A stretch of 64,000 nucleotides of DNA. Origin: Mobula hypostoma. Taxonomy: Eukaryota. The first letter of the stretch is position 1. Every line of letters starts with the position of its first letter. Where the stretch lies: NCBI RefSeq assembly GCF_963921235.1, contig NC_086108.1, forward strand, positions 16,616,001-16,680,000, read 5' to 3'. Made by a program: the position numbers and the translations under genes. Of this stretch, positions 4,510 through 56,495 are shown one piece after another. The notes beneath the pieces were generated by a model. The model did not search any database. It was not told where the DNA came from and was given only the letters and a program-made list of their open reading frames with translations.

Positions 4510-5320
4510 AAGAGCAAAAGGGGTGGAGCTTAGGAGGCCATCGAGGAGGAGCTTAGGAGGATTAGTGGTGCCTAACAGTGACTCCTTTGCTTGTATCTTC
4601 GGAAACAGCTTTACTTCCATCTTTAATATCTCCATTTTCCCCTTTTAGGGTCCTTTTAAAGACCCTGACCTGGAGTAACACACTGACTACAGTTCTTTGT
4701 GGGAATGGGACCCGCTCTGGGGTTTCATGAATAACCGTTGTTTGGCACGCCAAGGACCTGGCCTAAGAGCTTTGCTCGCCTTTGTAGGACTGAGATTTTG
4801 TGGCTCTGGAATCGGAGGGATCGGAGGTCAGTGCCTCTGCAGGAGATTGGTGTGTTATTGGAGACAGAGGGTTCAGAAGTCAGTATCTCTGTAGGAGATT
4901 GGTGTGTCATTGGAGATGGAAGATCTCTGGCAGTGTGCCCAGAGACCTGAGATCTTTCTCACTTATTAGGGAGAGAGAGAGAGCCTGTGGTATGTCAAAT
5001 ACCAGGTGAACAAGTAATCTTTGGGTCAACTGCAAGTCTGTGTCTTTGCTGTTGCTTTGCTCACACTTGAGTGCTCGGTGGTAGTCAACGTTTCGGGCTG
5101 AGACCCTTCATTTCCACGGATGCTGCCTGACCTGCTGAGTTCCTCCAGCATTTTGTGTGTGTTGCTTTGACCCTAGCATCTGTAGAATATTTTGTATTTA
5201 ACTGTCATTTATTCTTTGTGGGCACTCCTCTGTTTTTGTGGATGGTTGTGAAGAAAAAAACATTGCAGGATATACATTGTATACATTTCTCTGACATTAA
5301 ATGTACCTTTGAAACTTTGA
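4510..5320 (+). mobile_element. Non-coding SINE-like element with a family-B-like tail and an internal ~50-bp tandem duplication
   Basis: Tail attaaatgtacctttgaaactttgaaa. Duplicated unit gtcagt..ctctg.aggagattggtgtgt.attggaga at ~4826 and ~4879. Contains a Penelope tail fragment at ~5083-5190. Confidence 0.55.
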
Positions 5321-7147
5321 AAAGGAAAGCAGGGGACAAAATTGGTCCAGCTGAAGATCAGCGTCGTCATCTATACTGGAGATGGATGAGATGGGGGAGA
5401 TCTTAAATGGACTTTCTGCATCTGTGTTTACTCAGGAGATGGATACAGGACCTATAGAACTGAAGCAAAACAGTAGTGAAGTGAAGGATTCTATCCAGAT
5501 TACAGAAGAGGAAGTGGGAGGCCAAGGAATAAATGGTGAAGGCCATTTCAGAGATATATGCTTCAGTGTTAGTCACTCGTAACATTTCAGAAAACTGGAA
5601 TGTGCCTAATATTGTTCCATTATTCTATAAGGGTAGCAAGGACATACCAGGGAAATAAAGGCCAGTGAGCCTGACTTCAGTTGTAAGGATGTTACAGGAG
5701 GGAATTCTGAGGGACAAGATCTACCATCTCTTGGAGAGTCAAGGCCTGATCAGGAATAGTCAGCATGTTTTTGTGCATGGGAGGTCACATCTGGAGAATG
5801 TTTGGGAGTTTTTTGACCAGGTAACTAAGAGGACTGGGGAAGTGGATGTTGTCGATATGGACTTTTGTAAGGCCTATTGACAAGGTTCCATACCTCTGGA
5901 AGATCAGGTCACATGGGATTCGGGGGAGCTAGCAAGGTGGATTCAGAATTTTCTCGATGACAGGAAGCACAGGGTGATGGTTGAAAGTCAATTTTCTGAC
6001 TGGAGGTCTGCGACTAGTGGGGTGTCCCAGGATTCAGTGTTGGGATGGCTGTTATTCATTACCTGTGTAAATGATTTGGAAATGAATGTACATTGCACAA
6101 GTTGATAGTCTTGTTGACAGTGAAGCAGGTTACAATGATTTGTAAAGACATCTTGATTGGTTAGGGAGATGGGCTGCAGAACGGCAAATGGATTTTAACT
6201 TAGATTAAGCGTGAGGTGATTATTCTGGACATTCAAACCAGGGTAAGACTTTTACAGTGAATAGCAGGGCACTCACAAGTATTGTGGAACAGAGGGACCT
6301 AAAGTACAAAAGCACAGAGTGGTAAAGAAGTGTCCAGCATGCTGCCTTTCATCAGTCATGGCACCGAATTTAGGAACATAATGTTGCAGTTATAAAAGTT
6401 TTTGGTTTGACTGCATTTGAGAGTATTGTGTCCAGTTTTCAACACCCCTTTATAGGAAATACATCGCCAAGCTGGAGAGGTTGCTGAAGAGATTTACAAG
6501 GATTATGTCTGGACCAGAATGCTTGAGTGGTGACTTCACTGAAGTTTATAAAATCATGAGGGGTATGGATAAAGAGGATGTTCTTTGTCTTTACCCCTGA
6601 AATGGGGAGTCCAAAACTAGAGGGCACAGATACAAGATAAGGAAGAAGTTATTTAAAGGAAATCTGAGAGGTAACTTCTTCATACAGAGGGTATTGGGCA
6701 CCTGGAATGTTCCAACAGTGGAAGTAGTCAAAGCCAGTTATTACCCTCTATGTACATTCCAAATGCCTCTTAATTGCAACATTTAAGAAGCATTTGGAAA
6801 GTACATAGAGGGTAATAACTGAATGCAGGCATTAGGGAAGATGCTGTAGTCAGCTGTTGAACTGAAGGGCCTGCTTCTGTCTTGTATTAATCATGGTCTG
6901 TGCCATGATTTTCCGTAACACAAACCAAGAAATGCGAGTTAGAAAAAAAAAATTCACTTTACCTACACGAAAGTGAATTTTATTTGAATCTCAATTTTTT
7001 GGATAGCGATTTGTGAATATTCAGTGTGGATGAATTATCATTACACAGGGGTCACTTGTGTTTGAATAAATCCTTTGCATCTCCAATTTCAGAACCCACT
7101 CTGAATTTAGGAAATAGTCCAGAACTTTGAGTGGTGGGATGGAGATA

Positions 7148-8087
<940 letters not shown>

Positions 8088-8307
8088 CCCCATCATTTCA
8101 ATCATTAATGTATAGAGTGAAAAACTGCCAGCCCAGCAGTAACCCTTGAAAATGGCCTCTTTATCCCCACTCCCTGACTTCTGCCAGTCAGCCAATCTTC
8201 TATTTAGCTAGTACCACGACTCTAACACAACAGGGTCTTATATTGTTTAGCAGCCTTCTGTGTTGCACCTTGTCAAATGTCTGAAAATTGAAGCAAATAA
8301 CATCCAA

Positions 8308-9225
8308 GAGAAAATCTACAGTTGTTGGAAGTCCAAGCAAACACAAAAAATGCTGGAGGAACTCAGCAGGCCAGGCAGCATCTATGGAAAAGAGTACAGT
8401 CGACATTTTGGGCTGAGACCCTTCATCAAAATTGGAGAAAAAAGATGAGGAGTCAGATTAAGAAGGTGGGGAGGGGGGAGAGGAGGAAGAAACACAAAGC
8501 AATAGGTGAAACGGAGGTGGAGGAGAAGGGTGAAGTTAAGAGCTGGGAAGTTGATTGGTGAAAGAGATACAGAGCTGGAGGAGGGAAGTGGAACTAAAAT
8601 GGGAGGCCACTGAGAAATCCCGCTTTTTCTGGTGGATGGAGTGTAGGTCCTCGGTGAAGTGGTCTCCCAATCTACGCAGGGTCTCACCAATATAAAGGAG
8701 GCCGCACCAGGAGCACCGGGTATAGTCGATGACCCCAACAGACTCACAGATATGCTTCGCCTCACCTAGAAGGCCTGTTTGGAGCCTTGAATGGAAGTGA
8801 GGGCGGAAGTGTAGGGCAGGTGTAGCACTTGTTCCACTTGCAAGGATAAGTGCCAGGAGGGAAATCAGTGGAGAAGGTCGAATGGACAAAGGCGTTGGGT
8901 AGGGAGCTATCCCTGTGGAAAGCAGAAAGTGGGGGGAGGGAAAGATGTGCTTGGTGGTGGGATCCTGTTGAGAGCTGGTGGAAGTTACAGAGAATTATGT
9001 GCTAGATGCAGAGGCTGGTGGGGTGTTAGGTGAGGACAAGAGGAACTCTATCCCTGATGGGGTGGTGAGAGGATGGGGTGAGAGCAGACATGCACAAAAT
9101 GGATGTGATGTGGTTGAGGTCAGTGTTGATGCTGGAAGAAGGGAAGCCCCTTTCTTTGAAGGAGGACATCTCCTTAGTTCTGGAATGAAAGGCCTCACCC
9201 TGAGAGCTGATGTGGCGGTGACTGA
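8308..9225 (-). mobile_element. Penelope-like element fragment (GIY-YIG endonuclease region plus terminal repeat), degraded
   Basis: GVIDYTRCSWCGLLYIGETLRRLGDHFTEDLHSI; terminal repeat with a decayed hammerhead at ~8398-8430. Confidence 0.85.
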
Positions 9226-9299
9226 CTCTCTTAACAAAATCATGCTGACCTCTCCCTATTTCATCATGTACTCTAAAATTTTATCTATAATGTGTCGCT

Positions 9300-10505
9300 A
9301 ATTGTTGAGACATACCTGGCAGACAAAACTATATGAATAGAAAAAGAGTAGAGATGGCCAATTGAGATAGAAACGGATAGCAATGGTTTGTTATTTGATT
9401 GCTTGTCAATCATGAAATCGATCTGTTAAGAAAGAGATTTAATGGTGCAACTATACCACTGAGACTTTACTGTAATTTGCCAATTAGTAGAAAAATACTG
9501 AGCAGCAAATTTGCAGGTCATAGGTAGTGATGATGAGGGATTTGAACTGTCTAAACACCGTCTGAAAGAGCAGTAGCACAAAAAGATAAGTGGGAGGACT
9601 TCCTTAAGCACATTTGGATTAACTCTGCTGATCAGTGTGTTTCTGGCCCAACGAAAAAAGAGGCAATGTTGCATAGTTATGGGAAATGAGCCAGAATAAG
9701 TGGAGTATGTTTCAGCAGGGATAAATCTAGGAATAGTCACCATGACATCATGGAGCTTAAAACAGCTACAGGAAAAGGTGTCGAACACAACAAATCAAAA
9801 AAGTACATCGGAGAAGAGCCAATTTCAAAGGGCGAGAATAGGGAATCAAAGTTTGGTAGATAAAACCGCGATTAAACAATTGAAGGCTTTTTAAAGTAGA
9901 GAAGTTTAGGCTAAATTGCAATCCTAGTATCCTACAAAATTGCAGCCAAATTATCTGGATGACTAAAGAGGTAAGGTAAAAATGAGCAGAAAAAATATGA
10001 AAGATGCAAAATGAGAATGAAGTAGACAATAGAAAGCTTGGAGGGGAAATAAAAGAATCAAAGAAATAGCTTGAGAAACATTGGCAGCAAAAAGAAACAA
10101 ATTCAATAAATAAACATCCAATAATGTGAATAGGAAAATGATTGTAAGAGGTAGGTTGCTGATCTGAAATAAAAAGAAAATATATTCAAAGAGGGAGTAT
10201 AATAAATAAATATTTAGTATCAGTTTTTTAACCAAAGATGATGATGTTGTTGGAGTCACAGTAAAGGAAGATGGAATTCTGGATGGACTATGGTGCCTTT
10301 TCCCTAGGCAGCAATGGCTAATACCAGAGGACATTCTTTTAAGATGAGTGGAGGAAAGTTTAATGGAGGAGTCAGAGGTAGCTTTTTTTTTTAACACAGG
10401 AAATAATAGGTGCCTGGAACACAATGCCAAGGGTGGTGGCTGAAGCTGACACGTGGGGAATATTTAACTCTTAGATACGCACATATTTGTTGGAAAAATG
10501 GAGGG
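9300..10505 (+). mobile_element. Very old CR1 remnant
   Basis: Residual similarity to CR1 endonuclease and 3' segments (accagaggacattcttttaagatg.gtggaggaaagttt...gcctggaac); no open frame. Confidence 0.55.
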
Positions 10506-10521
10506 CAAAAGGCTAAACTTA

Positions 10522-10680
10522 AACACAAGATATTCTGAAGATGCTGAAAATCCAGAGAACACACACAAAATGCTGAAGGAACTCAGCAGATCAGGCAACA
10601 TATATGCAGAGGAATAAACAGTTGCTGTTTCAGGCCTCGACCTTTCATCAGGACCGTAAAGGAAGGGGGAAGCAGCTTTA
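10522..10680 (-). mobile_element. Penelope-derived terminal-repeat fragment
   Basis: acacacaaaatgctgaaggaactcagcagatcaggca...gtttcaggcctcgacctttcatcagga (decayed hammerhead). Confidence 0.75.
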
Positions 10681-12272
10681 CTGTTCTATGTTCCATGTTA
10701 AAAAATGTCTAGGGATAAACTGAGTAACTACAGTTCTGTCAGCTTGACCTCAGTAGTGGGGTGATTTCTAGAAATAAAACAAATCAGTATCAGTATTAAC
10801 ACAGAAGGGTAGGGAAAGGAAGAGGAGGGCAGTAGTAATAGGGGACTCGATAGTTAGGGGGTCAGATAGGCAATTCTGTGGATGTAGTCAGGAGACCTGG
10901 ATGGCAGTTTACCTCCCTGGTGCCAGGGTCCGGGATGTTTCTGATCGCGTCCAAGATAATCCTGAAGTGGGAGGATGAGGAGCCAGAGGTCGTGGTACAT
11001 ATAGGTATCAATGACATAGGTAGGAAAAGGGAAGAGGTCCTGAAAGGAGAATATAGGGAGTTAGGAAGGGAGTTGAGAAGAAGGACGGGAAAGGTAGTAA
11101 TCTCGGGATTACTGCCTGTGCCATGTGACAGTGAGAATAGGAATGGAATGAAGTAGAGGATAAATGCGTGGCTGAGGGATTGGAGCAAGGGGCAGGAATT
11201 CAAGTTTCTGGATCATTGGGACCTCTTTTGGCACAGGTGTGACCTGTACAAAAAGGACGGGTTGCACTTGAATCCTGGGGGACCAATATCCTGGTGGGGA
11301 GATATGCGAAGGCTACTGGGGAGACTTTAAACTAGAATGGTTGAGGGGTGGGAATCAAATTGAAGAGACTCGGAGGGAGGAGGTTGGTTCACAGATGGAG
11401 AGAGCTGGTGGACGGTGTGTGAGGGAGGGTGGGCAGAGGACACAGAACGGGAGCACTCAGACCCAAGATGTAGGGGAGAAGGAAGAAAAAGATAACAAAA
11501 GTTGTTTGCACCATTAGGGATAAACAGAGAGTAAGAGGTGGAGAGTTTCTTAAATGCATCTATTTTAATGCTAGAAGCATTGTAAGAAAGGTGGATGAGC
11601 TTAGAGCATGGATTGATACTTGGAAATATGATGTTGTAGCTATTAGTGAAACATGGTTGCAGGAGGGGTGTGATTGTCAACTAAATATTCCTGGATTTTG
11701 TTGCTTCAGGTGTGCAAGAGGGGAAGGTGTTACGTTGCTTGTCAGAGAAAATATTACGACTGCGCTTTGGCAGGATAGATTACAGGACTCGTCTAGGGAG
11801 GCTATTTGGGTGGAATTGAGGAATGGGAAAGGTGTAGCAATGCTTATAGGGGTGTATTATAGACCACCTAATGGGGAGCGAGAATTGGAGGAGGAAATTT
11901 GTAAGGAAATAGCAGATATCTGTAGTAAGCACAAGGTTGTGATTGTGGGAGATTTTAATTTTCCACACATAGACTGGGAAACCCATTCTGTAAAAGGGCT
12001 GGATGGTTTGGAGTTTGTAAAATGTGTGCAAGATAGTTTTTTGCAGCAATACATAGAGGTACCAACTAGAGAAGGGGCAGTGTTGGATCTCCTGTTAGGG
12101 AATGAGATAGGTCAGGTGACAGAGGTATGTGTTGGGGAGCACTTCGGGTCCAGTGATCACAATGCCATTAGTTTCAATGTAATTATGGAGAAGGATAGGA
12201 CTGGACCCCAGGGTTGAGATTTTTGATTGGAGAAAGGCTAACTTTGAGGAGATGCGAAAGGATTTAGAAGGA

Positions 12273-12366
12273 ACACACATCAAAGTTGCTGGTGAACGCA
12301 GCAGGCCAGGCAGCATCTCTAGGAAGAGGTACAGTCGACGTTTCGGGCCGAGACCCTTCGTCAGGA
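12273..12366 (-). mobile_element. ~94-bp Penelope-derived mini-insertion (hammerhead plus tail) with TSD
   Basis: Duplication aggatttagaagga at 12259-12272 and 12363-12376. The paralogous CR1 at ~34152-34187 has the empty site. Confidence 0.92.
12333..12366 (-). ncRNA. Minimal type I hammerhead ribozyme motif (core intact, stem I shortened)
   Basis: Reverse complement: tc-CTGACGA-agggtctcggccc-GAAACGTC-gact. Confidence 0.7.
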
Positions 12367-14671
12367 TTTAGAAGGAGTGGATTGGGACAATTTGTTTTAT
12401 GGGAAGGATGTAATAGAGAAATGGAGGTCATTCAAAGGTGAACTTTTGAGGGTACAGAATCTTTATGTTCCTGTTAGGTTGAAAGGAAAGGTTAAAAGTT
12501 TGAGAGAGTCATGGTTTTCAAGGGATATTGGAAACTTGATTCGGAAAAAGAGAGAAATCTACAATAAATATAGGCAACTTGGAGTAAATGAGGTGCTCGA
12601 GGAATATAAAGAATGTAAAAAGAACCTTAAGAAAGAGATTAGAAAAGCTGAAAGAAGATATGAGGTTGCTTTGGCAAGTAAGGTGAAAATAAATCTAAAG
12701 GGTTTCTACAATTATATTAATAGCAAAAGGATAGTGAGGGATAAAATTGTCCCTTAGAGAATCAAAGTGGACAGCTATGTGTGGAGCCAAAAGAGATGGG
12801 GGAGATTTTGAACAATTTCTTTTCTTCGGTATTCACTAAAAGATAATCGAATTGTGTAAGGTAAGGGAAACAAGTAGGGTAGTTATGGAAACTATGATGA
12901 TTAAAGAAGAGGTAGTGCTGGCGCTTTTAAGGAATATAAAAGTGGACAAGTCTCCGGGTCCTGACAGGATATTTCCTAGGATCTTGAGGGAAGTTAGTGT
13001 GGAAATAGCAGGGGCTCTGACAGAAATATTTCAAATGTCATGAGAAACAGGGATGGTGCCGGAGGATTGGCGTATTGCTCATGTGGTTCCATTGTTTAAC
13101 AAGGGTTCTGGGAGTAAACCTAGCAATTATCGGCCTGTGAGTTTGACGTCAGTGGTGGGTAAATTGATGGAAAGTATTCTTAGAGATGGTATATATAATT
13201 ATCTGGATAGACAGGGTCTGATTAGGGGCAGCCAACATGGATTTGTGCGTGGAAAGTCATGTTTGACAACTCTTATTAAATTTTTTGATGAGGTTACTAG
13301 TAAAGTTGATGAGGGTAAAGCGGTGGATGTTGTATATATGGACTTCAGTAAGGCCTTTGACAGGTTCCACATGGAAGGTTAGTTAGGAAGGTTTAATCGT
13401 TAGGTACTAATATTGAAGTAATAAAATGGATTCAGCTGTGGCTGGATGGGAGATGCCAGAGAGTAGTGGTGGATAACTGTTTGTCAGATTGGAGGCTGAT
13501 GATTAGTGGTTTGTCTCAGGGATCTGTACTGGGTCCAATGTTGTTTGTCATATATGCTAATGATCTGGATGATGGGGTGGTAAATAGGATTAGTAAGTAT
13601 GCAGATGATACTAAGATAGGTGGAGTTGTGGATAATGAAGCAGGTTTTCAAAGCTTGCAGAGAGATTTAGGCTGGTTAGAAGAGTGGGCTGAAAGATGGC
13701 AAATGGAGTTTAATGCTGATAAATGTGAGGGGCTACATTTTGGTAGGACTAATCAAAATAGGTAAATGGTAGGGCACTGAAGAATGCAGAAGAACAGAGG
13801 GATCTCGGAATAATGGTGCATAGTTCCCTGAAGATGGAATCTCATGTGGATAGGGTGGTGAAGAAAGCTTTTGGTATGCTGGCCTTTATAAATCAGAGCA
13901 TTGAGTATAGGAGTTGGGATGTAGTTGAAATTGTACAAGGCATTGGTAAGGCCAAATTTGGAGTAAACTTGATAGAGGTATTTAAAATTATGAGGGGATA
14001 GATAGATTTGAATGGGGGAGATTCAAACAAGGGGACATGAGTAGAGAGTTAATAAGGGCAAAAATTTAGGGGTAACATGAGGGGGAACTTCTTTACTCAG
14101 AGAGTGGTAGCTGTGTGGAACGAGCTTCCAGCAGAAGTGGTTGAGGCAGGTTCGAAGTTGTCATTTAAAGTTAAATTGGATAGCTATATGGACAGGAAAG
14201 GAATGGAGGGTTATGGGCTGAGCGCAGGTCGGTGGGACTAGGTGAGAGTAAGAGCTCGGCATGGAATAGAAGGGCCGAGGTGGCCTGTTTCCGTGCTGTA
14301 ATTGTTATATGGTTATATAACAATCATTTGAACATAAGGATTGATTAGAAAATGGCAACTTAGATTTATTTCAGCAAACTGTGCCAAACTAACTTGATAG
14401 GGTTTTTTGATGATGTAACACGGTTGATGTTGGGAATGCAGTTGATATGGCATATTTGGACTTCTAAAAGGCATTTAATAAGGTGTCATATAGTAAGCTT
14501 GTTATCAATATTAAAGTCCCAAAATAAAAAGAGTTGTACCTGCATGAATAGTAAATTGCTCGGTAAGGTAACAGAGTAATAATACTAGGTTAACTGTCAA
14601 ACTACAGTCATTTGTATAGTACAGTTCTTCTGGTGTCAGCTATACATTTACTATACATTTTTATTTAATCT

Positions 14672-15526
14672 ACTTTTTCAATCTGTCCCTGGCCCAGGCA
14701 GTTGCCCCACAAGCTTCTAGATCACCACCATCGTGCCAGTGCTGAAGCATTCCACTGCCACGGGCCTGAAAGACTTCTGCCCAGTTGCACTCACCCCCAT
14801 CACAAAGTGCTTTGAGGGATTGGTTCTATCACATCTGAAATCCTGTCTGCCCTCTACCCTGGACCCCCATCAATTTGCCTATCGCACCAATAGGTCAACA
14901 GAGGATGCCATCTCCACGGCACCTCACTCTGCCCTGACCCACCTGGACAGCCTTTATTTCCTGCGGCGCATCAAGAAAGCTCAACTCTGTCCCAGGATAC
15001 TGACGGACTTTTACCGCTGTACCATTGAGAGCACACTCACCAACTGCATCTCAGTGAGGTATGGCAATTGTCCTGTATCGGACCGCAAAGCACTCCAGCG
15101 TATGGTGAAAACTGCCCAGCGGATTATCAGCACCCAATTGCCCACCATTGAGAACATCTACCATAAAAGCTACCTGGGCAGGGTGAAAAGCATTATCAAA
15201 GATGCATTCACGCCAACCATGGACTTTTTACTCTCCTCCCATCTGGTAGGTGCTACAGGAGCCTCTGCTGCCGCACCGGCAGGCACAGGAACAGCTTCTT
15301 CCCTGAGGCTGTGACCCTGCTGAACCTCACATCACAGTGCTAAGCAGTATTGCACTCATATTGTACTGTCTCAGTACTTTTATATGTGTGCTGTAGCACT
15401 TACTTTTTATTTGCAGTTATTTTGTAAATAACACTATTCTTTGCATTTCTGGTTAGATGCTAACTGCGTTTCATTGGCTTTGTATTTGTACTCGGCACAA
15501 TGACAATAAAGTTGAATCTAATCTAA
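14672..15526 (+). mobile_element. Rex1/Babar-type LINE family A with an internal deletion, inserted in an old CR1 remnant (~14330-16700)
   Basis: [33 protein letters not shown] is fused directly to [10 protein letters not shown]; (tctaa)n tail. Confidence 0.88.
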
Positions 15527-15805
15527 TGGCTATTGTTTTTAAAATATATTTCGATGACTTGGGCTTTGATGTTGAGGGCACAATATCTTAAATTTGCAGA
15601 TGACTCAGATCTTGGTGGTTTAGTAACTAATAGTATCAGACCTCAAAGAGGAATACGCAAGCCAGTGGTATAGGCTGATAGGTGCTAATGAACTTTGATG
15701 CAGAGGATTGTAAAGTGTTACATTACGGTGGGACAAATGAGAAAAGACATAATTGTAATAGTGGTACCAGGAACAAAGACATTGGGAGGGGGCAGGGTAT
15801 ATATA

Positions 15806-16343
15806 TACTCATTGACCACTTTATTAGGTTCAGGAGTGGAACCTGGTGAGGTGTTCTACTGCTGTAGCCAATCCACTTTAAGGTCTGGTATGTTATGCTT
15901 CCAGAACACTACATCTTCTGCACAACACTATTGTAACGTGTGGTTATTTGAGTTACCGTCGCCTTCCTGTCAGTTTGAATCAGTCTGGTCATCCTCCTCT
16001 GACCTCCCTCATTAACAAGGTGTTTTCTCCCACAGAGCTGCTGTTCACTGGATGTTGCACCATTCTCTGTAAACTCTGGATCCTGTTGTAGTTGAAAATC
16101 CCAGATTATCAGCAGTTTCTGAGATACTCAAACCACCCTGTCTGGCACCAACAATCATTCCATGGTCAAAATTATGAAGATCATATTTCTTCTCCATTCT
16201 AGTATTTGGTCTGAACAACAATTAAGCCTCTTGACCAAATCTTCATGTTTAATACATTGAATTGCTGCCACATGATTGGCTGATTAGATATTTACATTAA
16301 TGAGCAAGTGTACAGGTGCACCTAATAAAGTTGCCACTGAGTG
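15806..16343 (-). mobile_element. Tc1-derived non-autonomous element with both TIRs
   Basis: TIRs tactcattgaccactttattaggt and acctaataaagttgccactgagtg; the interior is the reverse complement of 22857-24282. Confidence 0.85.
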
Positions 16344-18075: not shown

Positions 18076-18079
18076 TTCT

Positions 18080-20925: not shown

Positions 20926-22425
20926 AGTTGAATTCTTGCTGTGTAAACTCATTTAGTAAGTATCACACACGGTAATTCATTTGCATGGGACCATCGCAAT
21001 TGCAATCAATTAGAAGATATGCTTCCCAAAAAGAACACTAAGGTTGGAGTCTAACCTATTTCTACTTTTTCTAGTGCAAATGCACTGTCATAGCTGCGAC
21101 CCACAGCTATCTGTGTGCTTAGAAACTCATCCTTCACAATCACAAAGGAAAAGCAACAGAGTCTTCTTGCAAATATCTTTGTTCCCTTCTATGTCTATGA
21201 ATGATTAGGATAAAATGATATTGATGTGATAGGCTTTTGTTCATTTTAGGTTCTGCATTTCAGATCAATATTGGATACAATAATGGTCACTGGACGCACA
21301 TTGTTTTTATTAGTTTTTTCAATATCTATCTACCAAAAATTTGTTGTACTGATCAATACTAGGAATGAAATAGTTTTCTTAACCACTGCCAAGATCCCAA
21401 AGTCTCTCATCATAAACTTTAAAGCCAAAGAAGCATGCAGTTTCCTTTACTCTCTATCAACAAATCTTAGTCCCATTTACGTCAACCTGAATTTCCATCT
21501 TAATGCACCCAAGCAGCTTTCTTTACTCTTGATGAATCACATACAACTTTTTCATTGTGGAATATATTCAATGTGATCTGGGTTTAGACTCCTTCATGCA
21601 GTTGTGCATAACAGTACAGACAAGGGGATTGCACCTCATTGGTAAAACCCCTGGCTTATGCTTTCTAAAAGAAAGTTCACAGAATCCCAATGTATGCCCT
21701 TGAAGCACTAATACTATTATTAACGTCTTGCAAAATTAAAATGGAATTTGACTCACTTAATGGTCATTGTTCATACAGTAGCTATATTTTCATAATTAGA
21801 AGAAAATGAAAAAAATAATTTCTCACAAATTATACCACCAGGTCTTAGTATTACATTATTTAAAGTTACAAATATCAGCATAAGGCATGAGATCTCTTGC
21901 TTGGACATCTGTATCTAACAACATTACCATTTTTCAAAGCCACAAAATTCCTAACAAGCAAATGAAGATCAGCTGCTAAATTTGCTTAAAAGTAATGATG
22001 TAAAATATTGTTTGACCGTATCATGGAGTAGAAAGATGAAAAAAATGAACCCTTCCATAGCTGTGCAGATGAATATGAGTATCTTTTTAAAATGGAACAT
22101 TCTGTAACAGCATTATACGAGGCAATTAAATGTCATTAGCCATAATTACTAGGTGTGCGGATTCTTGTCTGCTGCTAATAAAATACCCCCCCAGAGACTG
22201 AATGACAGCTTTTAACTCCTCCAAATGGGAGCACTGTAATGCATGAGCAATAAAGCAAAAAAAAACAAATTTAGACTAAGTGAGCATGCTGTGGTCAGGC
22301 TCAGAAGGTGTTTGTTGTTTGCCTTTGTTTGGTTCTCCATTAATTTTTTTTGCCTTAAAGCCCAAAACATTTTGGATTTCTACAATGAAAAAGAAGGCCA
22401 TCAGCATAATCATCAGATGTTTTTA

Positions 22426-22630
22426 CTAGGAAGAGGTACAGTCGACGTTTCAGGCCGAGTCCTGACGAAGGGTCTCGGCCTGAAACGTCGACTGTATGTC
22501 CTGACGAAGGGTCTCAGCCTGAAACGTCGACTGTACCTCTTCCTAGAGATGCTGCCTGGCCTGCTACGTTCACCAGCAACTTTGATGTGTGTTGCTTGGA
22601 TTTCCAGCATCTGCAGAATTCCTGTTGTTT
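22426..22630 (+). mobile_element. Penelope-derived short insertion: inverted stub, two tandem hammerheads, tail
   Basis: Inverted piece at 22426-22458; hammerhead units at 22458-22493 and 22498-22532; family tail to ~22630. Confidence 0.88.
22458..22532 (+). ncRNA. Tandem dimer of minimal hammerhead ribozymes (39-nt period)
   Basis: agtc-CTGACGA-agggtctcggcct-GAAACGTC-gact, then gtc-CTGACGA-agggtctcagcct-GAAACGTC-gac. Confidence 0.8.
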
Positions 22631-23410
22631 GAAATGTTTTTACTGTTTTCCTTTTAAATGCGGTGTTATCTTAACATCAAACACAATCTATTGTAAGCAT
22701 TACCTTCTCTCCTTACAATTCCAGAGGAGTGCTTTACACAAACTGATACTTCAGGCACTTAATTGCATCCAGTTGTCATCTTTTTTAGGTACTTGCTAAT
22801 AAGCGATGTTTTACTTTTATATCTCTGTTGAGGACTCTAGGAGATATTGCTATATACACCCAGAGGCCACTTCATTAGGTACACCTGTACACCTGCTTAT
22901 TAATTGAAATATCTCATCAGCCAATCAAGTGGCAGCAACTCAATGCATAAAAACAGGCAGGCACGTTTAGTTGTTGTTCAGACCAAGCATCAGAATGGGG
23001 AAGAAATGTGATCTAAGTGACGTTGACCATGGAATAATTGTTGGTACCATACGGGATGGTTTGAGTATCTCAGAAACTGCTGATCTCCTGGGATTTTCAC
23101 ACACAACAGTCTCTAGAGTTTACAGAGAATGGTGCAAAACACAAAAACATCTAGTGAGCGGCAGTTCTGTGGGTAAAAATGCCTTGTTAATGACAGAGGT
23201 CAAAGGAGAATGTCCAGACTGGTCCAAGTTGACAAGAAGGTAACTCAAATGACCTCATGTTACATCAGTGGTGTGCAGAAGAGCATCTCTGAATGCACAA
23301 CACATTGAACCTTGACAAGAGGAATTCTGCAGATGCTGGAAATTCAAGCAACACACATCAAAGCTGCTGGTGAACGCAGCAGGCCAGGCAGCATCTGTAG
23401 TAAGAGGTAC

Positions 23411-38979: not shown

Positions 38980-41392
38980 CTCCTCCGAACGATTCTAGAG
39001 TGATTTCCCTCAATTTACAATCATGGCTGCAAATGTCATTGCCCTCAAGTTCCCTGAATTCTGGCAGGAACATGCTGCAGTTTGGTTTACTCAGGAGGAG
39101 GTCCAGTTCACAGTATGTGGAATTTTGCAAGACGACACAAAATATTACTATGCCAAGCCCGAGTGTACTTGTCGGCTCCTGTCACTGCCTGGCTTAGGCG
39201 ACTCCAAGCTGTCGGAGTTGATGGACCACATGTTGACCCTCTCTGGCGGACATCAGCCATATTTCATTTTCAGAGAGCTTTCCCTACAACCAGGCAAAGT
39301 GTGGTTGGCTCTGATGGCTCTCCCCTCAAAGACCTCCAGGCTCTAGCAAGAGAGGCTGACAAGATGTTTTCTGTCACCAAACCTATACGATCATATGGCT
39401 GGATGACACTTCTGCCTCGCTGCCAGTTAAACATAAGACAATCGCCGTGGCTCAATGACAGTCTCCTACCCTGCATTCCTACCACATGAGGTTTGGGCCG
39501 AGAGCTAAGAAGTGCCACCCATCCTGTGGGTTCAAGGAGTTGGGAAACGGAATGGCCAGTGTCTGTGAGCTGCTGTGGGTGTCTGCGAGCTGCTGTGGGT
39601 GTCTGCAGGTCAGGCAGTTTGTTGTTTATTACAGACTCTTCTTCGGGACGCAATTTCCTCCGTGACACAGGCGCTCAGGTGAGCATCTTGCCCCTGTCTA
39701 AATTGGACATACGAACTGGGGAATATGGACCGTCTCTCAAGGTTGCAAACGGCAGCGCCATCCGGACTTTTGCTAAGTGTGAGATGGTGTTGTGCTTTGA
39801 CGGGCAGAAGTTCTGCATGAATTTTGTGCTGGCAATAGTGTTTACACTCTTGCTGGGGGCCGACTTCCTCTGTGCCAACAGTCTTCTCGTTGATGTCCAG
39901 AACCAGCACCTCAACGCAGAGAATTTCTACTCCCCCTTCAACACACTCAGCGCCACTGACACTTCAAAGTTGTCCAGCGCCCCTTACGCCTCCGACAACT
40001 TCCTCCGCCTCCTTGTTGAGTTCCTGGACCTGACTGAGTCCACCTTCTCCTCCCCCACCACTAAACACGGGGTGGAGCACCACATCCACACCACCAGCCT
40101 GCCTGTTCACGTTCCCACGAGGTGCTTCTCCACATTTGGAGAAGCTAGCTGGTGCCAAGGCTGAGTTTGATGCCATGGAGCATCTGGGCATCATCAGGTG
40201 GTCCAGCAGTCCATGGGCTTCCCCTCCGCATCATGTGAAAACCGGGGAGTGGGGGTGGGGGGTGGCATCAATGATCAATGCAGTGATTAGCATCACCTCA
40301 ACGATGCCACGGCACCTGACCGATATCCGATCCTGCACTTCCATGATTTCTCGGCCCGCCTAGCAGGAAAAGGTATTTTCTCAAAGGTGGACCTCGTTCA
40401 CAGTTATCATCAGGTCCCTATCTGCCTGAGTGACATTCCTAAAACTGCTGTTATTACATTGTTTGATTAGTTTGAGTTCCCTTGAATGCTATTCGGGTTG
40501 AAGAATGGGGCCAAGACATTTCAGCGCCTCACAGACAGTGTTCTCCGGGATTTGCTATTCATGTTTGTTTACCTAGTGACATTTTGGTAGCCAGCTCTCT
40601 AGGGACCAACATCTCTTACACTAGAGAAACCTTTTCCAAAGCCATAGTCAGCATAGTCTTATTGTCAATCTGGCAAAGTGTCAGTTTGGACTGTCTGTGG
40701 TCGAATTCCTTAGACATCGCGTCAAAGCACCATGGGCAGTTCCCCAGTCAGCAAAAGTTGAAGCCGTTAAGCGCTTCCCTCGGCCAGTCACTATTAAGAC
40801 CCTGTTGGAGTTTTTGGGCATGGAGATCTTTTATCACCACTTTATCCCCAAAGTGGTTCTTAAGGGCAAAGCGAAAGCATGTCATGGACTGGACAGAGGA
40901 AAGATCCAAGGCATTCTCGAACACTAAGCAGGCATTATCTAAAGCAACACTGCTGGTGCACCCCTCCCAGACACACTGATCACTCTCAGCACGGGCGTGT
41001 TGGATTGCGCGGTCAGTGAGATTCATGAGCAGTTGGTCGACGGTGTTGGGCAGCTTACTGTATTTTTCAGCCATCCGTGTTGCTCCTGTGAGTGCAAGTA
41101 CAACACGTTCGACTGAAAGCTTCTCAGCCTGCACTTGGCAGTGCAATATTTTTATTTTCTCCCAGAAGGCCGTCTATTTACGGCTTTCGTGGACCATAAG
41201 ATTGCAACAATCTTCAGTCAGAAGTGCCGAGTAGATGATCCGGCTCGGCCTCCTCCAGAAGTCCCCAGTACCCCAGATATCAGTATGTAGCCAATTCAAT
41301 TCACTCCACGTGATATCAAGAAATAGCTGAAAGCACTGTGATACTGCAAAGGCTATGGACCCAGACAAAATCCCGACAATAGTCTTGAAAAA

Positions 41393-42164
41393 CCACACAT
41401 CAAAGTTGCTGGTGAACGCAGCAGGCCAAGCAGCATCTGTAGGAAGAGGTGCAGTCGACGTTTCAGGCCGAGACCCTTCGTCAGGACTAACTGAAGGAAG
41501 AGTGAGTAAGGGATTTGAAAGTTGGAGGGGGAGGGGGAGATCCAAAATGATAGGAGAAGACCGGAGGGGGAGGGATAGAGCCAAAAGCTGGACAGGTGAT
41601 AGGCAAAAGGGGATACAAGAGGATCATGGGACAGGAGGTCCAGGAAGAAAGACAGGGGGGGGGGGACCCAGAGGATGGGCAAGAGGTATATTCAGAGGGA
41701 CAGAGGGAGAAAAAGGAGAGTGAGAGAAAGAATGTGTGCATAAAAATAAGTAACAGATGGGGTACGAGGGGGAGGTGGGGCCTTAGCAGAAGTTAGAGAA
41801 GTCGATGTTCATGCCATCAGGTTGGAGGCTACCCAGACGGAATATAAGGTGTTGTTCCTCCAACCTGAGTGTGGCTTCATCTTGACAGTAGAGGAGGCCG
41901 TGGATAGACATGTCAGAATGGGAATGAGATGTGGAATTAAAATGTGTGGCCACTGGGAGATCCTGCTTTCTCTGGCGGACAGAGCGTAGATGTTCAGCAA
42001 AGCGGTCTCCCAGTCTGCATCGGGTCTCACCAATATATAAAAGGCCACATCGGGAGTACCGGACGCAGTATATCACCCCAGTCAACTCACAGGTGAAGTG
42101 TTGCCTCACCTGGAAGGACTGTTTGGGGCCCTGAATGGTGGTAAGGGAGGAAGTGTAAGGGCAT
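41393..42164 (-). mobile_element. Young Penelope-like 3' segment: open GIY-YIG frame, terminal repeat, intact hammerhead
   Basis: FTCELTGVIYCVRYSRCGLLYIGETRCRLGDRFAEHL...GMNIDFSNF; TSD of at least gtcttgaa (41382-41389, 42165-42172). Confidence 0.92.
41453..41488 (-). ncRNA. Minimal hammerhead motif (intact), sense to the XPR1 pre-mRNA
   Basis: Reverse complement: agtc-CTGACGA-agggtctcggcct-GAAACGTC-gact. Confidence 0.75.
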
Positions 42165-43379
42165 GTCTTGAAGACTTGTGCTCCAGAACTTGCCACACCA
42201 CTAGCCAAGTTGCTCCAGCACAGCTACCTGACAATGTGGAAAATTGCCCTGTACACAAGAAACAGGACAAGTCCAACCCACCAATTACCACTCCATCAGC
42301 AAATTAATGGAAGGGGTCATCAACAGTGCTATCATGCAGCACCATAACCTGCTTACGGATGCCCAGTTTGGGTTCCATCAAGGCCACATCACCTCCTTGG
42401 TCCAAACAAGTACCAAAGAGCTAAATACCAGAGGTGAGGAGAGGGTGATAGCTCTCAACATCAAGGCAGCATTTGACCAAGTACAGCATCAAGGTGTCCT
42501 AGCTGAAATGGAGTCAATGAGAATTGGAGGGAAGAAGTGGGGATGTTCGCAGATGACTGCACAATTTGTGTCTCCTCAGATAGTGAAGCAGTTCATAGCC
42601 AAATGCAGCACGACCTGGACAATATCTAGGCTTGGGCTGGCAAGTAACATTCGAGCCTTGCAAGTGCCAGACAATGACCATCTCAAACCATCGTCCCTTG
42701 ACATTCAGTAGCATCACCATCACTGAATCCCTTACTATCAACATCTTGGGGCTTACTCTTAATAGGAAACTGAACTGTTCTAGCCATATAAACACCATGG
42801 CTACCAGAGCAGGTCAAAGGCTAGTCACTTCTTGACTCCCCAAAGCCTGTCCACCATCTACAAGGCTCAGGTCAGGAGTGTAATAGAATACTCACCACTC
42901 GCCTGGATGAGTGCAGGTCCATCAACACTCAGAAAGCTTGACACCATCCAGTACAAGGCAGCCCACTTGACTGGTATCTCTTCCACAAGCATCCAATCCC
43001 TCCACCATCGATGAACAGTTGCAGCAATGTGTACTATCTATAAGATGCACAGCAACAACACACCAAAAGTTCCGAAGGCAGCACCTTCCAGACCCACGAC
43101 CGCTACCATCTAGAAGGACTAGAACAGCAGATACCTGGGAACACCACCACTTGGAAATCCCCCTCCAAGTCACTCATCATCCCAACTTGGAAACATATCA
43201 CCATTCCTTCATTGTCGCTGGGTCAAAATCATGAAATTTCCTCCCTAACAGCACTGTGGGTGTAACTACACCTCAGGGACTGCAGCGGTTCAAGAAGGCA
43301 GCTCATTACCACCTTCTCAAGGAAACAAGGGATGGGCAATAAATGCTGGCTTAGCTGGCGATGCTCACATCACGTAAAT

Positions 43380-50442: not shown

Positions 50443-50517
50443 GTAAATGGCCAATATTTGCTCATTAAATTGTAAAACCTCATCCATAGCCCTAAATAAA
50501 AACAAGTTAACAGCAAG

Positions 50518-50904
50518 CAACACACACAAAATGCTGGTGGAATGCAGCAGGCCAGACAGCATCCATAGGAAGAAGCACCCTTTCGTCACCCTCAACTGTT
50601 TCCTGTGGCAGAGAATTCCACAGATTCACCACTCTCTGAGATCAGGGGGTATGGAGAGAAGGCAGGTACAGGGTTCTGAGTTGGATGATCAGCCATGATC
50701 ATACTGAATGGCGGTGCCGGCTCAAAGGGCCGAATGGCCTACTCCTGCGCCTATTTTCTATGTTTCTATGTTTCCATGTCAGGACTCGGCCTGAAACGTC
50801 GACTGTGCTTCTTCCTATGGATGTTGTCTGGCCTGCTGCGTTCCACCAGCATTTTGCGTGTGTTGCTTGAATTTCCAGCATCTGCCGATTTCCTCGTGTT
50901 TGTG
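50518..50904. mobile_element. Inverted Penelope tail pair with a 14-bp TSD, holding a CR1 insert
   Basis: TSD aagttaacagcaag at 50504-50517 and 50905-50918; CR1 pieces at ~50591-50777. Confidence 0.85.
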
Positions 50905-52015
50905 AAGTTAACAGCAAGATGGTTTTTGATTTAAAAAGTCAGTGAATCATGGGGGTCAATTCACTATTGATGGGATAAAGAATGCACTATTTCTTGAATG
51001 TACATTTCTGGCTATTGCAGTGGTCTGTGTTTCAGCTGAAAAATGAACATCTATTTAAGCAACACACACAAAATGCTGGAGGAACTCAGCAGGTCAGGTA
51101 GCATCTTTGGAAATGAATGAACAGCTGGTGTTTCAGGCCAAGACCCTTCCTATGGACTGGGAAGGAAGGGGGAAGACGTCAGAATAAAAAGATGGGAGGA
51201 GAGGTAGCAAGGAGGTGATAAGTGAAGCCAGGTGGGTGGGAAAGATAAAGGGCTGGAGAAGAAAGAATCTGATAGTAAGGGAGAGTGGAGTGTAACAGAA
51301 AGGGAAGAAGGAGGGGAGGTGATAGGCAAGTGAGGAGAAGGGTAAGAGGCCAGAGCAGGGAATTGAAGAGGTGGGAAGGGGATTGGAAAAAAAACTCAGA
51401 AGGTATTTATTATTTAAGTAATACTATAAATATATTGTTTGATTAAGCAGTCTTGTTCATTTAAATAATTCACTATGGGTTATATCTAAAAACACATAAG
51501 TTGCATACGTCATGACGCTACCACATGATACGTGCATACCTCACTTAAAGTGAACACAAAGATTCGCATTTTTCAACTCTCCTGTTTTAAATTGAATTAG
51601 TTTAATGTTTTGTAGTTACAAAACATAACAGTGGTCTTTGGGGTATCTTAAAACAAACCTGAGACAGCTACCAACCTGTTGAAGCACAATAGGACAGCGG
51701 TCCCCAGGTACCGGGCCGCAAAGCATGTGATACCGGGCCGTGAGGAAACGATATGAGTCAGCTACACCTTTCCTCATTCTTGTTGAACTTGAACATAGGT
51801 TTCATAGGAACGCTCTACCTTAGTGGGGTAGAGCCCAATATATGGGATGTCCTGGCAAATACGGGACAGTTGGCAACCCTATGATCGCATCTTTCAACTC
51901 TCCTGTTTTAAACTGAATTAGTTTAATGTTTTGTAGTTACAGAACAAAACAGTGGTGATGCGGCATCTTTAAAACAAACCTGAGACAGCTACCAACCTGT
52001 TGAAGCACAATAAGA

Positions 52016-53563: not shown

Positions 53564-56366
53564 CAGTTGAGTTGCAGTCAGGAATGAAAGTGAACGTGAA
53601 CAAATTGCAAATTCTAAACAAAAACCTGACTGGCCGAACAAATTGTGTTATCGTTGTGGCAGGGGCTCACATATATCAAACTAATGCAGGTTTAAAGACG
53701 AAACCTGTAAAAAAAAATGCAACGAACTAGGCCACATACAAAGTTGGACAATAATAAATGGACTGCGCAGAAAAGAGAAAAGGATAAGAAGTTGCAGTTT
53801 CAAAGAGCCCTAATCTGCACACTATTAATGAAAAATCTGAAAATGAAGAGAGATTCCCTTTTTATTGCTGGTGAGATCACTCTACTACAGAGAGGAGAGA
53901 CTATCTTTTTAATACTGGAGAGATTGCTCTGCTATGGAGAGGGGAGACTGCCTTTTTTTTAATCACTGGTGAGATCACTCTTCTATGGAGAGGGAGAATA
54001 CTGACCAGGTTTTCTGCATTTTGAATGTGGACTTGGGACTATGGATTTTTTTTTTCTGGCTTAGTTTTTTGTATTCTGTGTTTTTCAACTCATCTTTCTC
54101 ATATTTTTGTGTGTGGGGTAGGGGGATCTCTGGAGGGAGGGGTTGATGTGCCTGTTCTGTTTTTGTTTGTTTTATTATGCAGAGAGGAGGAATTTGGAGT
54201 TTGACTGTTTTTTACTTTCTTGGTTTTGTGGCTATCTGGAGAAGAAGAAGAGTTGTATACTTTGATAATAAATGAACCCTTGAGTCACACAGGACGGGTA
54301 ACCTTGAAATTTAGAAAGTGAAAACTAACGATAGACAAGCAATATAGCTTACATCAGAAGAGAATGGGAACTTAATTAATATGAAATTGGACATTGGCTG
54401 TATAAGTCAATCCATAAAAAGATACAGAACTGAAGCCTGTAGATATTCAGCTAAGAACTTACACTGGAGAAAAGATAACTCCTGTGGGAATGACATTTGT
54501 AACAGTGAGATACACAATCAACAAGTCACATTATGCTTGTACGTGGTAAGAACAGGAGGGCCAGCATTATGGGGGTGTGATGGGCTGAGACAACTACAAC
54601 TTGATTAGCGATCCATCCACCATTTGCATGCCACATCCCCTGCAACGCAGTCAACTAAAAGTGAATTAAGGAAGATACTTGTTCAGTTAAATCATTACGT
54701 CAGAACGAGAATGGGATTAGGAATTAAAATGGTAGGCCACTGGGAAATTTTGCTTTCGTTGGATGGAGCAGAGGTGCTCGATAAAGTGGTCCCCCATTTT
54801 ACGACGGGTCTCATGAATGTAGAGGAGGTCGCATCAGGAGCAATAGATAACCTCAGCAGATTTGCAGGTGAAGTGTTGCCTCACCTGGATGGACTGTTTG
54901 GAGTCCTGAATGAAGGTAAGGCAGGAGGTGAATGGGCAAGTGTAGCATAGACCTCCTAGATCTTGTGTGCTAGGAGGGGGATTAGTAGATGAAAGGAAGA
55001 ATGGACAAAGGCATCATGGAGGGAGTGATCCCTGTGGAAAGTAGAGAGTGCAGTTGGGGGTAGGTAAAGATAATGATTGGTGGTAGGATCCCATTGACAG
55101 TGGCAGAAGTTAAGCAGAATGATATCCCTTTTCTTCTATTCCCCAAACTGACCTCCTACCTCTTCTCTTCACCTGCCTATCACCTCCCCCGGTGCCCCTC
55201 CTTCTTCCCTTCCTCCCATGATCCACTCTCTTCTCCTATCAGATTTCTTCAGCCTTTAAACTTCCCCACCTACCTGGTTTCACCAATCACCTTCTAGGTA
55301 GTTCTCCTTCCCCTTCCTTCCCTGTACTGAGCATGGGTCTCCACCTGAAACATTGACTGTTTATTCATTTCCATCCATGCTGCCTGACCTGCTGAGTTCC
55401 TTCAGTATTTTGTGTGTATTGCTCTGGACTTCCAGAATCTACAGAATCTCGTGTTTATCCACTTAAGTAGATCTCATTAACAAAATGTTTCATAATTCTA
55501 AGAACTTAAACCTTCTAACAAAAAGTATGCTGCTTTAAGAAACTGAAATGATGTCATCCACACTTCTTTTACCAGATCTTTCTCCACGGCAGAATCTAGG
55601 TCAAGAGCACTCCAGTAGAACAGATAGATTTACAAACCAACAGAGATATGATTTCTATTAAAATACTAACTAGACTTCAGGACATAGACAGTGAAGTAGA
55701 TAATTTTGAGTTCTATCCTATGTTCTTTCAAATTATTTCCTGCCTGTATGGCATCCCCATGGAATCATGCCTGATATAAAATGTACTGTTAAAAAACTTA
55801 GATTAAATTAGGAATTTCAAGAGATATGGGTCTATGGAGCAGAGCAGTAAAGGATGAGGTAAGAGAGGAGCCACGATCTTAATGAATGGTGGAGCAGGCT
55901 GACTTCTGTTTCTATTACTTCTCAAATATTTAGGAAACCATGTCCTTACAAAGTCTTTGTGCATGTCACTGACTTATTTCTTTTGTCATTATATATTTTG
56001 CATGAGCAAAGTATAGTTCACACAGGATTATCTAGTTTCATAATATCTCTGAAAACAAAATGACATTTCCATTAATACCTGCACTCACTCCCAATACTCC
56101 TGCTTGAATCATTGAGAATTCCCTTTATAATACTGGAAAATACTGTGAGAATCTTTTTCATTCTGAGGTTTCCTACCTGATTTAGTGTTCTGTGAATTTC
56201 TTGACTCTTTACTACTACCAAACTTTTAAAGTGGACATTATAGCATAAAAGTCACAAAATGATGAAACTAGCCTAACTTTGTATATACTATACAAAGCTG
56301 GACAATCATTTCATATTTTACCTATTCAAATTAAAATTTCAATTTTGATTGGAAAAGGGCTTCTTG

Positions 56367-56495
56367 AGTCCTGAAGAAGGATCTCAGCCTGAAATGTTGA
56401 CCGTTTATTCATTTCCATAGATGCTGCCTGTCTACTGAGTTCCTCGAGCAGTCTGTGTGTGTTGCTTTGGATTCCCAGCATCTGCAGAATTTTAA
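56367..56495 (+). mobile_element. Old Penelope-derived hammerhead-plus-tail mini-element
   Basis: agtc-ctgaaga-aggatctcagcct-gaaatgtt-gac followed by the family tail. Confidence 0.75.

Follow-up and report, generated by a model that had tools for sequence, protein, structure and literature searches.

Minimal type I hammerhead ribozymes are known from the terminal repeats of Penelope-like elements (PLEs). In the report of Cervera and de la Pena (2014, PMC4209133), most minimal hammerheads are solo; these number in the thousands and are ascribed to probable truncated PLEs, and some pairs of motifs occur on opposite strands 100-700 bp apart. Craig et al. (2021, PMC8557442) give as general PLE traits heavy 5' truncation, partial tandems that form pseudo-long terminal repeats (pseudo-LTRs), an adjacent inverted truncated copy and a tail of 30-40 bp. 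For PAc, a Poseidon element of Anolis carolinensis, both strands are cut and then extended by the enzyme, which begins reverse transcription at two neighbouring internal sites that define an optional tail of 30-40 bp; ribozyme mutants still insert, and no RNA-seq reads end at the ribozyme cut (Frangieh et al. 2024, PMC11167929). Animal retrozymes derived from PLE terminal repeats were also proposed in PMC7229834 and bioRxiv 10.64898/2026.07.22.740005, where animal non-LTR retrozymes are defined as tandem units of 150-450 bp with one type I hammerhead per unit. Here, we compare with these systems a hammerhead-bearing PLE family found in a 64,000-nt stretch of the Mobula hypostoma genome (contig NC_086108.1, positions 16,616,001 to 16,680,000, forward strand; hereafter the window).

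The repeats and the motif flagged in the window in an earlier note on this DNA were both confirmed. Our preferred reading, to which we give a probability of about 75%, is that these repeats (~16 copies) are 3'-terminal pieces of one very abundant endonuclease-encoding PLE family, and that the short ones are likely dead-on-arrival products of target-primed reverse transcription and not a self-propagating mini-element. The element itself is of a known kind, with an unusually clear genomic record of its mechanism.

The full-length form was found in the genome (3.48 Gb searched, 200 contigs), where the GIY-YIG frame used as a query returned 193,173 first-look candidates, some of them with open frames of 1043 aa. 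Two full-length copies, L007 and L008, each carry one such frame and have the same layout: a partial upstream unit of ~1.16 kb, a hammerhead, a 5' untranslated region (5'UTR) of ~110 nt, the 1043-aa frame, a 305-bp 3'UTR, a second hammerhead and a tail. The repeat unit measures 3518 bp from one hammerhead to the next, and the first Met lies ~140 nt past the hammerhead. The sequence of the tail past the 3' hammerhead is identical to that of the 5'UTR past the 5' hammerhead, and a pseudo-LTR formed by partial tandem is present (positions 1401-2562 of L007 repeat positions 4906-6080 with 97% identity; L008 is laid out alike). Pfam models RVT_1 and GIY-YIG matched residues 534-696 (E 7.6e-5) and 946-1020 (E 0.0043) of the frame, respectively, both under their curated cut-offs. 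The order, reverse transcriptase (RT) followed by a C-terminal GIY-YIG, is correct for endonuclease-positive PLEs, and the GIY...YIG motifs are legible in the translation. By eye, a Neptune-type C-x4-C-x2-C motif precedes GIY-YIG in the translation, which distinguishes the element from PAc; PMC8557442 gives a CX2-5CxxC linker as a trait of Neptune and Nematis elements.

Exact word matches gave a lower bound on abundance. Two variants of a hammerhead 37-mer matched 9,047 and 13,959 times genome-wide, for a total of 23,006 and hence at least as many exact cores, while a 33-mer from the tail matched 57,460 times and a 33-mer from the start of the ORF 539 times; the reversed control of every word gave 0 matches. 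Among 20 copies with long open frames, 19 were 5'-truncated within the ORF and one was exactly one unit long, too few to decide on a transcript start. Copies fell into a young set with 88-99% identity to L007 and an older set with 70-84% that stems from other subfamilies, which bears out the suggestion of at least two age classes made in the earlier note. What the old subfamilies retain is the hammerhead with a polypyrimidine tract and CAG before its core, together with the first part of the tail; their 3'UTRs differ.

We also observed that in many old subfamilies the polypyrimidine tract and CAG stand directly before the core (window positions 10521-10666, 51053-51168 and 55313-55399) and resemble a 3' splice site; the CAG belongs to helix I as well. 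A similar 3' splice site has reportedly been seen in the intron of Drosophila virilis Penelope. Contigs of four public runs (three studies, kind of run not stated) join position 2116 of L007 to position 2420, skipping 303 nt of 3'UTR. A GT-AG intron was ruled out here, as the skipped segment has CG..TT ends in all four runs, and the joint probably represents a subfamily whose ORF end abuts the hammerhead. The summed word depth of the four runs was about a thousand-fold lower right after the end of the tail; this depth is unfit for ranking and was not used.

As far as its nucleotides tell, the motif is the already known minimal type I hammerhead of PLE terminal repeats. The pattern CTGACGA-N(4-30)-GAAACGTC has 6 exact matches in the window and 0 in 100 dinucleotide-preserving shuffles. 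These six intact cores, located at 12337-12364, 23415-23442 and 41457-41484 on the minus strand and at 22462-22489, 22501-22528 and 24111-24138 on the plus strand, are those listed in the earlier note, whose coordinates include the preceding 4-nt agtc. Direct reading shows the CUGACGA and GAAA boxes, stem II GGGU-CUCG-GCCU with one additional A in front of it, and a GUC triplet ahead of the predicted cut. The assignment to a Penelope family with a minimal type I hammerhead could likewise be read in the sequence: a palindromic ACGU replaces helix III (GAA-ACGU-C) and also lies within a 6-nt palindrome, GUCGAC. Helix I is formed by AGUC with GACU (UUAGUC with GACUGU) in copies that reach at least 4 nt upstream, and its native AGUC strand is wholly or partly gone in 12/98 sampled copies (those ending 0-3 nt upstream) and in the window copy at 12273-12364. 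The two dominant young variants read GGCCU-GAAA (CCTG), which places a G-U where G10.1-C11.1 is conserved; the core at 12337-12364 and many old subfamilies read GGCCC-GAAA (CCCG) or CpG-decayed forms at the end of stem II.

Rfam hammerhead models, whose use the earlier note had suggested, gave no match in the window at the gathering score or at E up to 10, as expected for a motif that lacks helix III. Minimum-free-energy folds of the monomer, the dimer, the 39-nt double motif and the fold-back did not yield the hammerhead fold either, and such folding is no test of activity. A hairpin, AGCAAC/GUUGCU, is present at the first reverse-transcription start site, and the fold of the tail is no better than that of shuffles (z = -1.1). 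Compared with the minimal hammerheads described in PMC4209133, the motif shares the CUGANGA and GAAA boxes, the additional nucleotide ahead of stem II, ACGU where helix III would be, a short helix I (4-5 bp), a position in the terminal repeat of an element encoding RT and GIY-YIG, and the occurrence of both solo motifs and opposite-strand pairs. It differs from them by its far higher copy number, by the G-U pair of the two dominant variants, and by the fact that here the positions of 5' ends relative to the motif were quantified.

To this end, the first 100 genome matches of the first hammerhead 37-mer, all on contig C1, were aligned to L007, and 98 were evaluable (L009 and L070 failed the anchor rule). 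Upstream of the first base of CTGACGA, 5' ends lay at 0-4 nt in 16 copies, 5-9 nt in 7, 10-14 nt in 6, 15-19 nt in 5, 20-29 nt in 5, 30-39 nt in 8, 40-49 nt in 2, 50-99 nt in 5, 100-199 nt in 8, 200-399 nt in 11, 400-799 nt in 8, 800-1599 nt in 13, and 1600 nt or more in 4. Half of the copies (49/98) thus ended less than 50 nt upstream of the hammerhead, and the density of ends was more than 10-fold lower beyond ~37 nt. Since an intact hammerhead was required, this sample is blind to ends inside the motif; therefore, a second, unbiased sample was anchored in the tail (the first 28 genome matches of the tail 33-mer, 27 evaluable). Thirteen of its ends lay between -36 and +32 (7 inside the hammerhead and 6 at 0-32 nt upstream), 3 at 128-218 nt and 11 beyond 400 nt, a strong departure from a uniform spread over -36 to 400 (p = 1.3e-8). 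The hot zone is thus not limited to the front edge of the ribozyme; it covers the whole motif together with ~35 nt to each side. Short copies have ragged 5' ends, scattered between -36 and +37 relative to where the hammerhead begins, and in many of them helix I has lost its 5' strand or the core is incomplete. These counts uphold the discrete short class of the earlier note, as about half of the sampled copies end within ~35 nt of the hammerhead and the distribution is not smooth.

A third sample was anchored at the ORF start and comprised 37 of the first 41 listed places, leaving out two in loci already sampled and one tandem pair that was studied apart. Eight of 32 resolved 5' ends lay 0-30 nt upstream of the 5' hammerhead (p = 1.4e-6) and 18/32 between -151 and +30, while 5 copies ran past the start of the reference. 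The hot zone therefore recurs after 3.5 kb of cDNA synthesis and is site-specific, not a result of early fall-off. Its presence at the upstream hammerhead of unit-length copies suggests that an RNA 5' end or a barrier may be located there.

Two apparent features of the 5' ends were set aside. A pile-up of old copies at 4 nt upstream (72 bystander copies) is an alignment artefact: the 3'UTR differs in the old subfamilies, so that the alignment halts at the conserved hammerhead. The bystander cross-check was consequently limited to 25 copies with at least 88% identity. Chimeric or spliced upstream exons behind apparent 5' ends were rejected, as target-site duplications (TSDs) directly abut the ends in most solo short copies.

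The architecture of the 98 hammerhead-anchored insertions was that of 55 head-to-head inverted pairs (56%), 41 solo copies and 2 tandems. Inverted pairs made up 30/49 of the copies ending less than 50 nt upstream of the hammerhead, 13/24 of those ending at 50-399 nt, and 12/25 of those ending at 400 nt or more; in 29/30 short inverted pairs the partner arm was short as well. Direct repeats of at least 8 nt flanked 57/98 insertions versus 3/98 in a control shifted by 60 nt. Such repeats enclosed the whole pair in 39/55 inverted pairs and were 13 or 14 nt long, the mode, in 26 of them. Each inverted pair, with a tail at both outer ends, therefore represents one insertion event. Separately, close pairs of hammerhead or tail matches on contig C1 were, among the places listed, always minus-then-plus (head to head) and never tail to tail, and in the list of tail places 3/6 close pairs are too near each other for both hammerheads to be whole.

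The 3' ends fell 55-75 nt after the predicted cut in 47/98 copies, 95-111 nt after it in 47/98, and elsewhere in 4. TSD positions put them near +66 and near +101 to +104 (the long class extending over ~101-110 nt), i.e. ~35 nt apart, and these two classes match the optional 30-40-bp tail of endonuclease-positive PLEs. The element has in common with PAc a hammerhead at the junction of pseudo-LTR and ORF, two start sites that yield an optional tail of 30-40 bp, apparent cutting and extension of both target strands, and a ribozyme that would be dispensable for insertion (PMC11167929); the evidence here is genomic and not biochemical, as the stagger measures 13-14 bp and inverted pairs make up 56% of the sample. 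The PAc ORF has its start within the hammerhead, whereas here the hammerhead precedes the first Met by ~140 nt. Compared with the endonuclease-positive PLE architecture laid out in PMC8557442, nothing essential differs, and our data add the frequencies and the hot zone.

We then compared 46 short copies (<50 nt upstream) with 44 long ones (at least 100 nt) at the variable sites of their common hammerhead and tail, defined by a minor allele in 6 or more copies. No difference was found at the 4 such sites (Fisher p 0.42-0.78). Mean divergence was 1.3% for short and 2.0% for long copies, and the two tail classes were split alike, 23 to 22 in the short and 24 to 25 in the long copies. Given the common variants and tail classes, the ragged 5' ends and the scarcity of tandems, we take it that the autonomous element gave rise to the short copies as dead ends. 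These are likely dead-on-arrival by-products, with no sign in these alignments of a separate master, and the "hammerhead plus tail" units are likely truncated PLE insertions rather than a new family of mini-elements.

Tandem, retrozyme-like structures do exist elsewhere in the genome. Locus L146 (contig C2, 157815000-157820000) holds 4.1 tandem units of 310 bp, 99% alike, with a 13-nt TSD around the array; the unit runs from 6-9 nt before the hammerhead to ~47 codons into the ORF. Its junction was found at only one other locus, L188 (contig C50, 58411000-58414500), where 1.5 units stand between other flanks and have a separate TSD (at least 9 nt). The segment absent from the 310-bp unit corresponds to 3203 nt of the reference, and starts with GT; its last two bases are the AG of a strong polypyrimidine-AG site that immediately precedes the hammerhead. 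The arrays would thus fit a spliced RNA that was copied round and round (rolling circle), as judged from a single junction. Two further loci, L147 and L148, hold other short tandem structures with 13-nt TSDs and junctions that are not GT-AG. The L146 and L188 arrays fit the definition of animal non-LTR retrozymes given in Cervera and de la Pena (2020, PMC7229834) and Li, Clavereau and Pollet (2026, bioRxiv 10.64898/2026.07.22.740005); they are rare, and none lies in the window. The family shares with those retrozymes the type I hammerhead, non-coding sequence and dependence on the PLE machinery. In contrast, the copies of the window are single or inverted and not tandem, have ragged 5' ends, and show no lineage of their own. 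Among them, no tandem units of 150-450 bp with one hammerhead each were found, and the only double motif has its two hammerheads 39 nt apart (22462-22528).

The proposal of the earlier note, a non-autonomous and retrozyme-like short class moved by the Penelope machinery acting in trans, must be weighed against these data. Such retrozyme- or SINE-like copies would be transcribed themselves, and their RNA might be cleaved at the hammerhead and closed into circles. In favour of it, a discrete short class with its own TSDs exists, PLE-derived tandem mini-units with one hammerhead each have been inserted whole (L146, L147 and L148 with 13-nt TSDs, L188 with at least 9 nt), and PLE-mobilised animal retrozymes have been proposed in the two reports cited above. 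However, short and long copies hold the same variants and tail classes with comparable divergence, 5' ends are ragged, with helix I stripped of its 5' strand or the core cut short in many copies, 30/49 short copies are halves of inverted pairs, and tandems account for 2/98 copies. Furthermore, the copies stop at the reverse-transcription start and, by analogy with PAc (PMC11167929), would be without the downstream RNA that the enzyme needs. We therefore regard a separate retrozyme-like lineage as unlikely. A role for self-cleavage in defining the copied RNA, whether as RNAs cut after GUC or as circles made from them, appears very improbable. It would agree with a cut-to-cut unit of 3518 nt that equals the repeat unit, with L109, L151 and L153, which begin exactly at the tail end as a one-unit or rolling-circle product would, and with the likeness of the 310-bp arrays to rolling-circle cDNA. 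Yet no 5' ends pile up at the cut (-28): a single end among the 27 of the unbiased sample lies at -29, and partner arms scatter from -7 to -107. Because of this lack of a pile-up, cleaved RNA is not the usual template. Moreover, the two dominant variants have U and not C at 11.1, and PAc ribozyme mutants insert normally, with no RNA-seq reads ending at the cut (PMC11167929).

A different question is what makes the hot zone. The simplest reading would be that many template RNAs begin there. A serious rival, which we would call tentative, is that the zone marks a site-specific stop or template switch at a folded or dimerised hammerhead or at a bound protein, with the pairing of two RNAs through the palindromic GUCGAC favouring head-to-head joining. 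Ends in the unbiased sample are equally dense inside the hammerhead (7 in 36 nt) and just upstream of it (6 in 33 nt), both arms are short in 29/30 short inverted pairs, template switches adjoin hammerheads in the window insertion at 22428-22633 and at L084 and L148, and the recurrence of the zone after 3.5 kb of synthesis speaks for site specificity. Conversely, a block should halt the enzyme on the 3' side of the structure, whereas most hammerhead-anchored ends lie beyond it, thermodynamic folding does not favour the hammerhead fold, and inverted pairs are about as common among long copies (12/25).

Several points weigh against our preferred reading of the repeats as truncated insertions of a single PLE family whose RNA begins near the hammerhead. 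The lineage test has low power, since it uses only 4 sites and all copies were chosen for one identical 37-mer, and every sample was drawn from a single contig (C1), within its first 30-175 Mb. The Pfam scores of RVT_1 and GIY-YIG are both under the curated cut-offs, as given above. Tandem retrozyme-like derivatives exist, so that PLE-derived non-autonomous units may occur in general. With regard to the transcript, we infer an RNA 5' end near the hammerhead only from DNA copies. The three full-length copies studied start outside the hot zone, either ~870 nt upstream of the 5' hammerhead (L007 and L008) or at the tail end (L109), and the 7/27 ends inside the hammerhead agree equally well with a transcript start and with an enzyme that stops or switches template specifically where the ribozyme is folded or dimeric.

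With these points in mind, the insertions could be accounted for as follows. The two target strands would be cleaved by the GIY-YIG nuclease at points 13-14 bp from each other, and from each target 3' end cDNA synthesis would be primed internally on the RNA, as in vitro for PAc. If most template RNAs start ~0-37 nt upstream of a hammerhead, an enzyme that begins at the leader-proximal sites would run off after ~100-170 nt and leave a "hammerhead plus tail" copy, and head-to-head pairs would come from the joining of two cDNAs of this type or from a fold-back. The hammerhead itself would not be required to explain any of the ends. Short copies should not propagate, because they would be without any promoter located upstream and without the RNA beyond the start site. 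A more speculative joint reading, which we consider rather doubtful as a whole, would combine these elements: the element RNA would begin ~0-37 nt before the hammerhead and copying would start ~66 and 101-110 nt past the cut, and the mRNA leader would therefore be the commonest retrotransposed piece (it would make up about half of the insertions, which number well over 50,000); a single cut would remove the cap together with the leader from the coding RNA and so act as a switch between message and template; and a splice acceptor at the front edge of the ribozyme could yield 310-nt units that are copied round and round.

Within the window, the insertions with intact cores present the same picture. 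The copy at 12273-12364 (minus strand; core 12337-12364) is a young solo mini-copy whose stem II is of the CCCG form and whose tail is short, with a TSD of 13 nt (12260-12272 and 12364-12376); it begins at the first C of CTGACGA and hence lacks the native 5' strand of helix I. A complex insertion at 22428-22633 (plus strand) consists of an inverted partial arm, a hammerhead at 22462-22489, a second one 39 nt downstream at 22501-22528, and a long tail, with an 11-nt TSD (22417-22427 and 22634-22644). The left arm of a head-to-head inverted pair occupies 23316-23780 (minus strand) and includes ~336 nt of 3'UTR, the hammerhead 23415-23442 and a long tail; the right arm, at 23784-24198 (plus strand), has ~332 nt of 3'UTR, the hammerhead 24111-24138 with its predicted cut at 24138/24139, and a short tail. 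A 14-nt TSD surrounds the whole pair 23316-24198 (23302-23315 and 24199-24212). One TSD had been reported before for a short copy, and these three insertions show that TSDs of their own are indeed present. The pair interrupts a Tc1/mariner-like element (transposase frame starting MGKKCDLSD...) that is split into 22860-23315 and 24199-24300. Finally, a young 5'-truncated copy at 41394-42166 (minus strand), 97% identical to the full-length reference, comprises the ORF end with GIY-YIG, the 3'UTR, the hammerhead 41457-41484 and a short tail. The open frame with GIY-YIG at 41783-42223 (minus strand; Pfam E 0.0022, under the curated cut-off) lies upstream of the motif, as the earlier note had stated for the longer copies, and parts of the frame are also found in three old copies at 27395-29018 (plus), 8305-8821 (minus) and 54699-55399 (plus).

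Decayed copies were found by blastn with a long copy as the query, which, like all BLAST alignments here, places ends to within a few bases only. Matches were obtained at all nine of the other places named in the earlier note. The weakest, at 5083-5150, consists of two decayed and oppositely oriented fragments of hammerhead and tail (pieces of 27 nt and 32 nt, E 5e-4 and 1.4e-4). Among the old copies that keep part of the ORF's C-terminus, the one at 8305-8821 (minus strand, 71-77% identity) is 5'-truncated and continues with the 3'UTR, a decayed hammerhead and the tail (hammerhead and tail at 8305-8428). The older long copy at 27395-29018 (plus strand, 78-87% identity) is in two pieces (27395-27521 and 28383-29018) and has the ORF C-terminus, the 3'UTR, a decayed hammerhead and a short tail, and the old long copy at 54699-55399 (plus strand) has a piece of the ORF C-terminus at 54699-54941 and a decayed hammerhead and tail at 55313-55399. 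Only hammerhead and tail are present in the old copies at 10521-10666 (minus, ~71% identity) and 51053-51168 (minus, ~72%), which both belong to another subfamily, and in those at 24987-25107 (minus, ~74%) and 56367-56491 (plus, ~76%). The copy at 50782-50902 (plus strand, 85% identity) starts within the hammerhead (9 nt after the first base) and has a long tail. Two fragments absent from the earlier list contain tail only: an old one at 37321-37413 (plus strand, 78% identity), which begins ~8 nt past the cut site, and one at 50514-50576 (minus strand, 83% identity).

Other features of the window were recorded in passing. Near-perfect long hairpins at 6735-6821 and 37261-37370 match several plant and animal Rfam miRNA models below threshold on both strands and are probably remnants of inverted-repeat transposons. 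A broken retroelement frame with a DTG protease-like motif followed by RT-like sequence lies at 39490-41000 (plus strand), and a LINE-type RT fragment at 42232-42711 (plus strand) adjoins the young Penelope copy. GC skew, measured in 4-kb bins, is strong and of opposite sign at 8001-16000 (+0.25 to +0.32) and 32001-36000 (-0.43).

Taken as a whole, the traits of this family agree with those described in PMC11167929, PMC8557442 and PMC4209133, and what was measured here, on a large scale and in a further vertebrate genome, is therefore the known pattern of PLEs. Two internal start sites and priming from both strands, as observed in vitro for PAc, recur in vivo in tens of thousands of young insertions. 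To these the genome adds a measurable stagger of 13-14 bp and, around the ribozyme, a hot zone for 5' ends, which offers a concrete and testable place for the RNA 5' end or for a stop of the enzyme. For annotation, "hammerhead plus tail" units are to be filed as truncated PLE insertions. These results bear on how PLEs move and on the role of their hammerheads.

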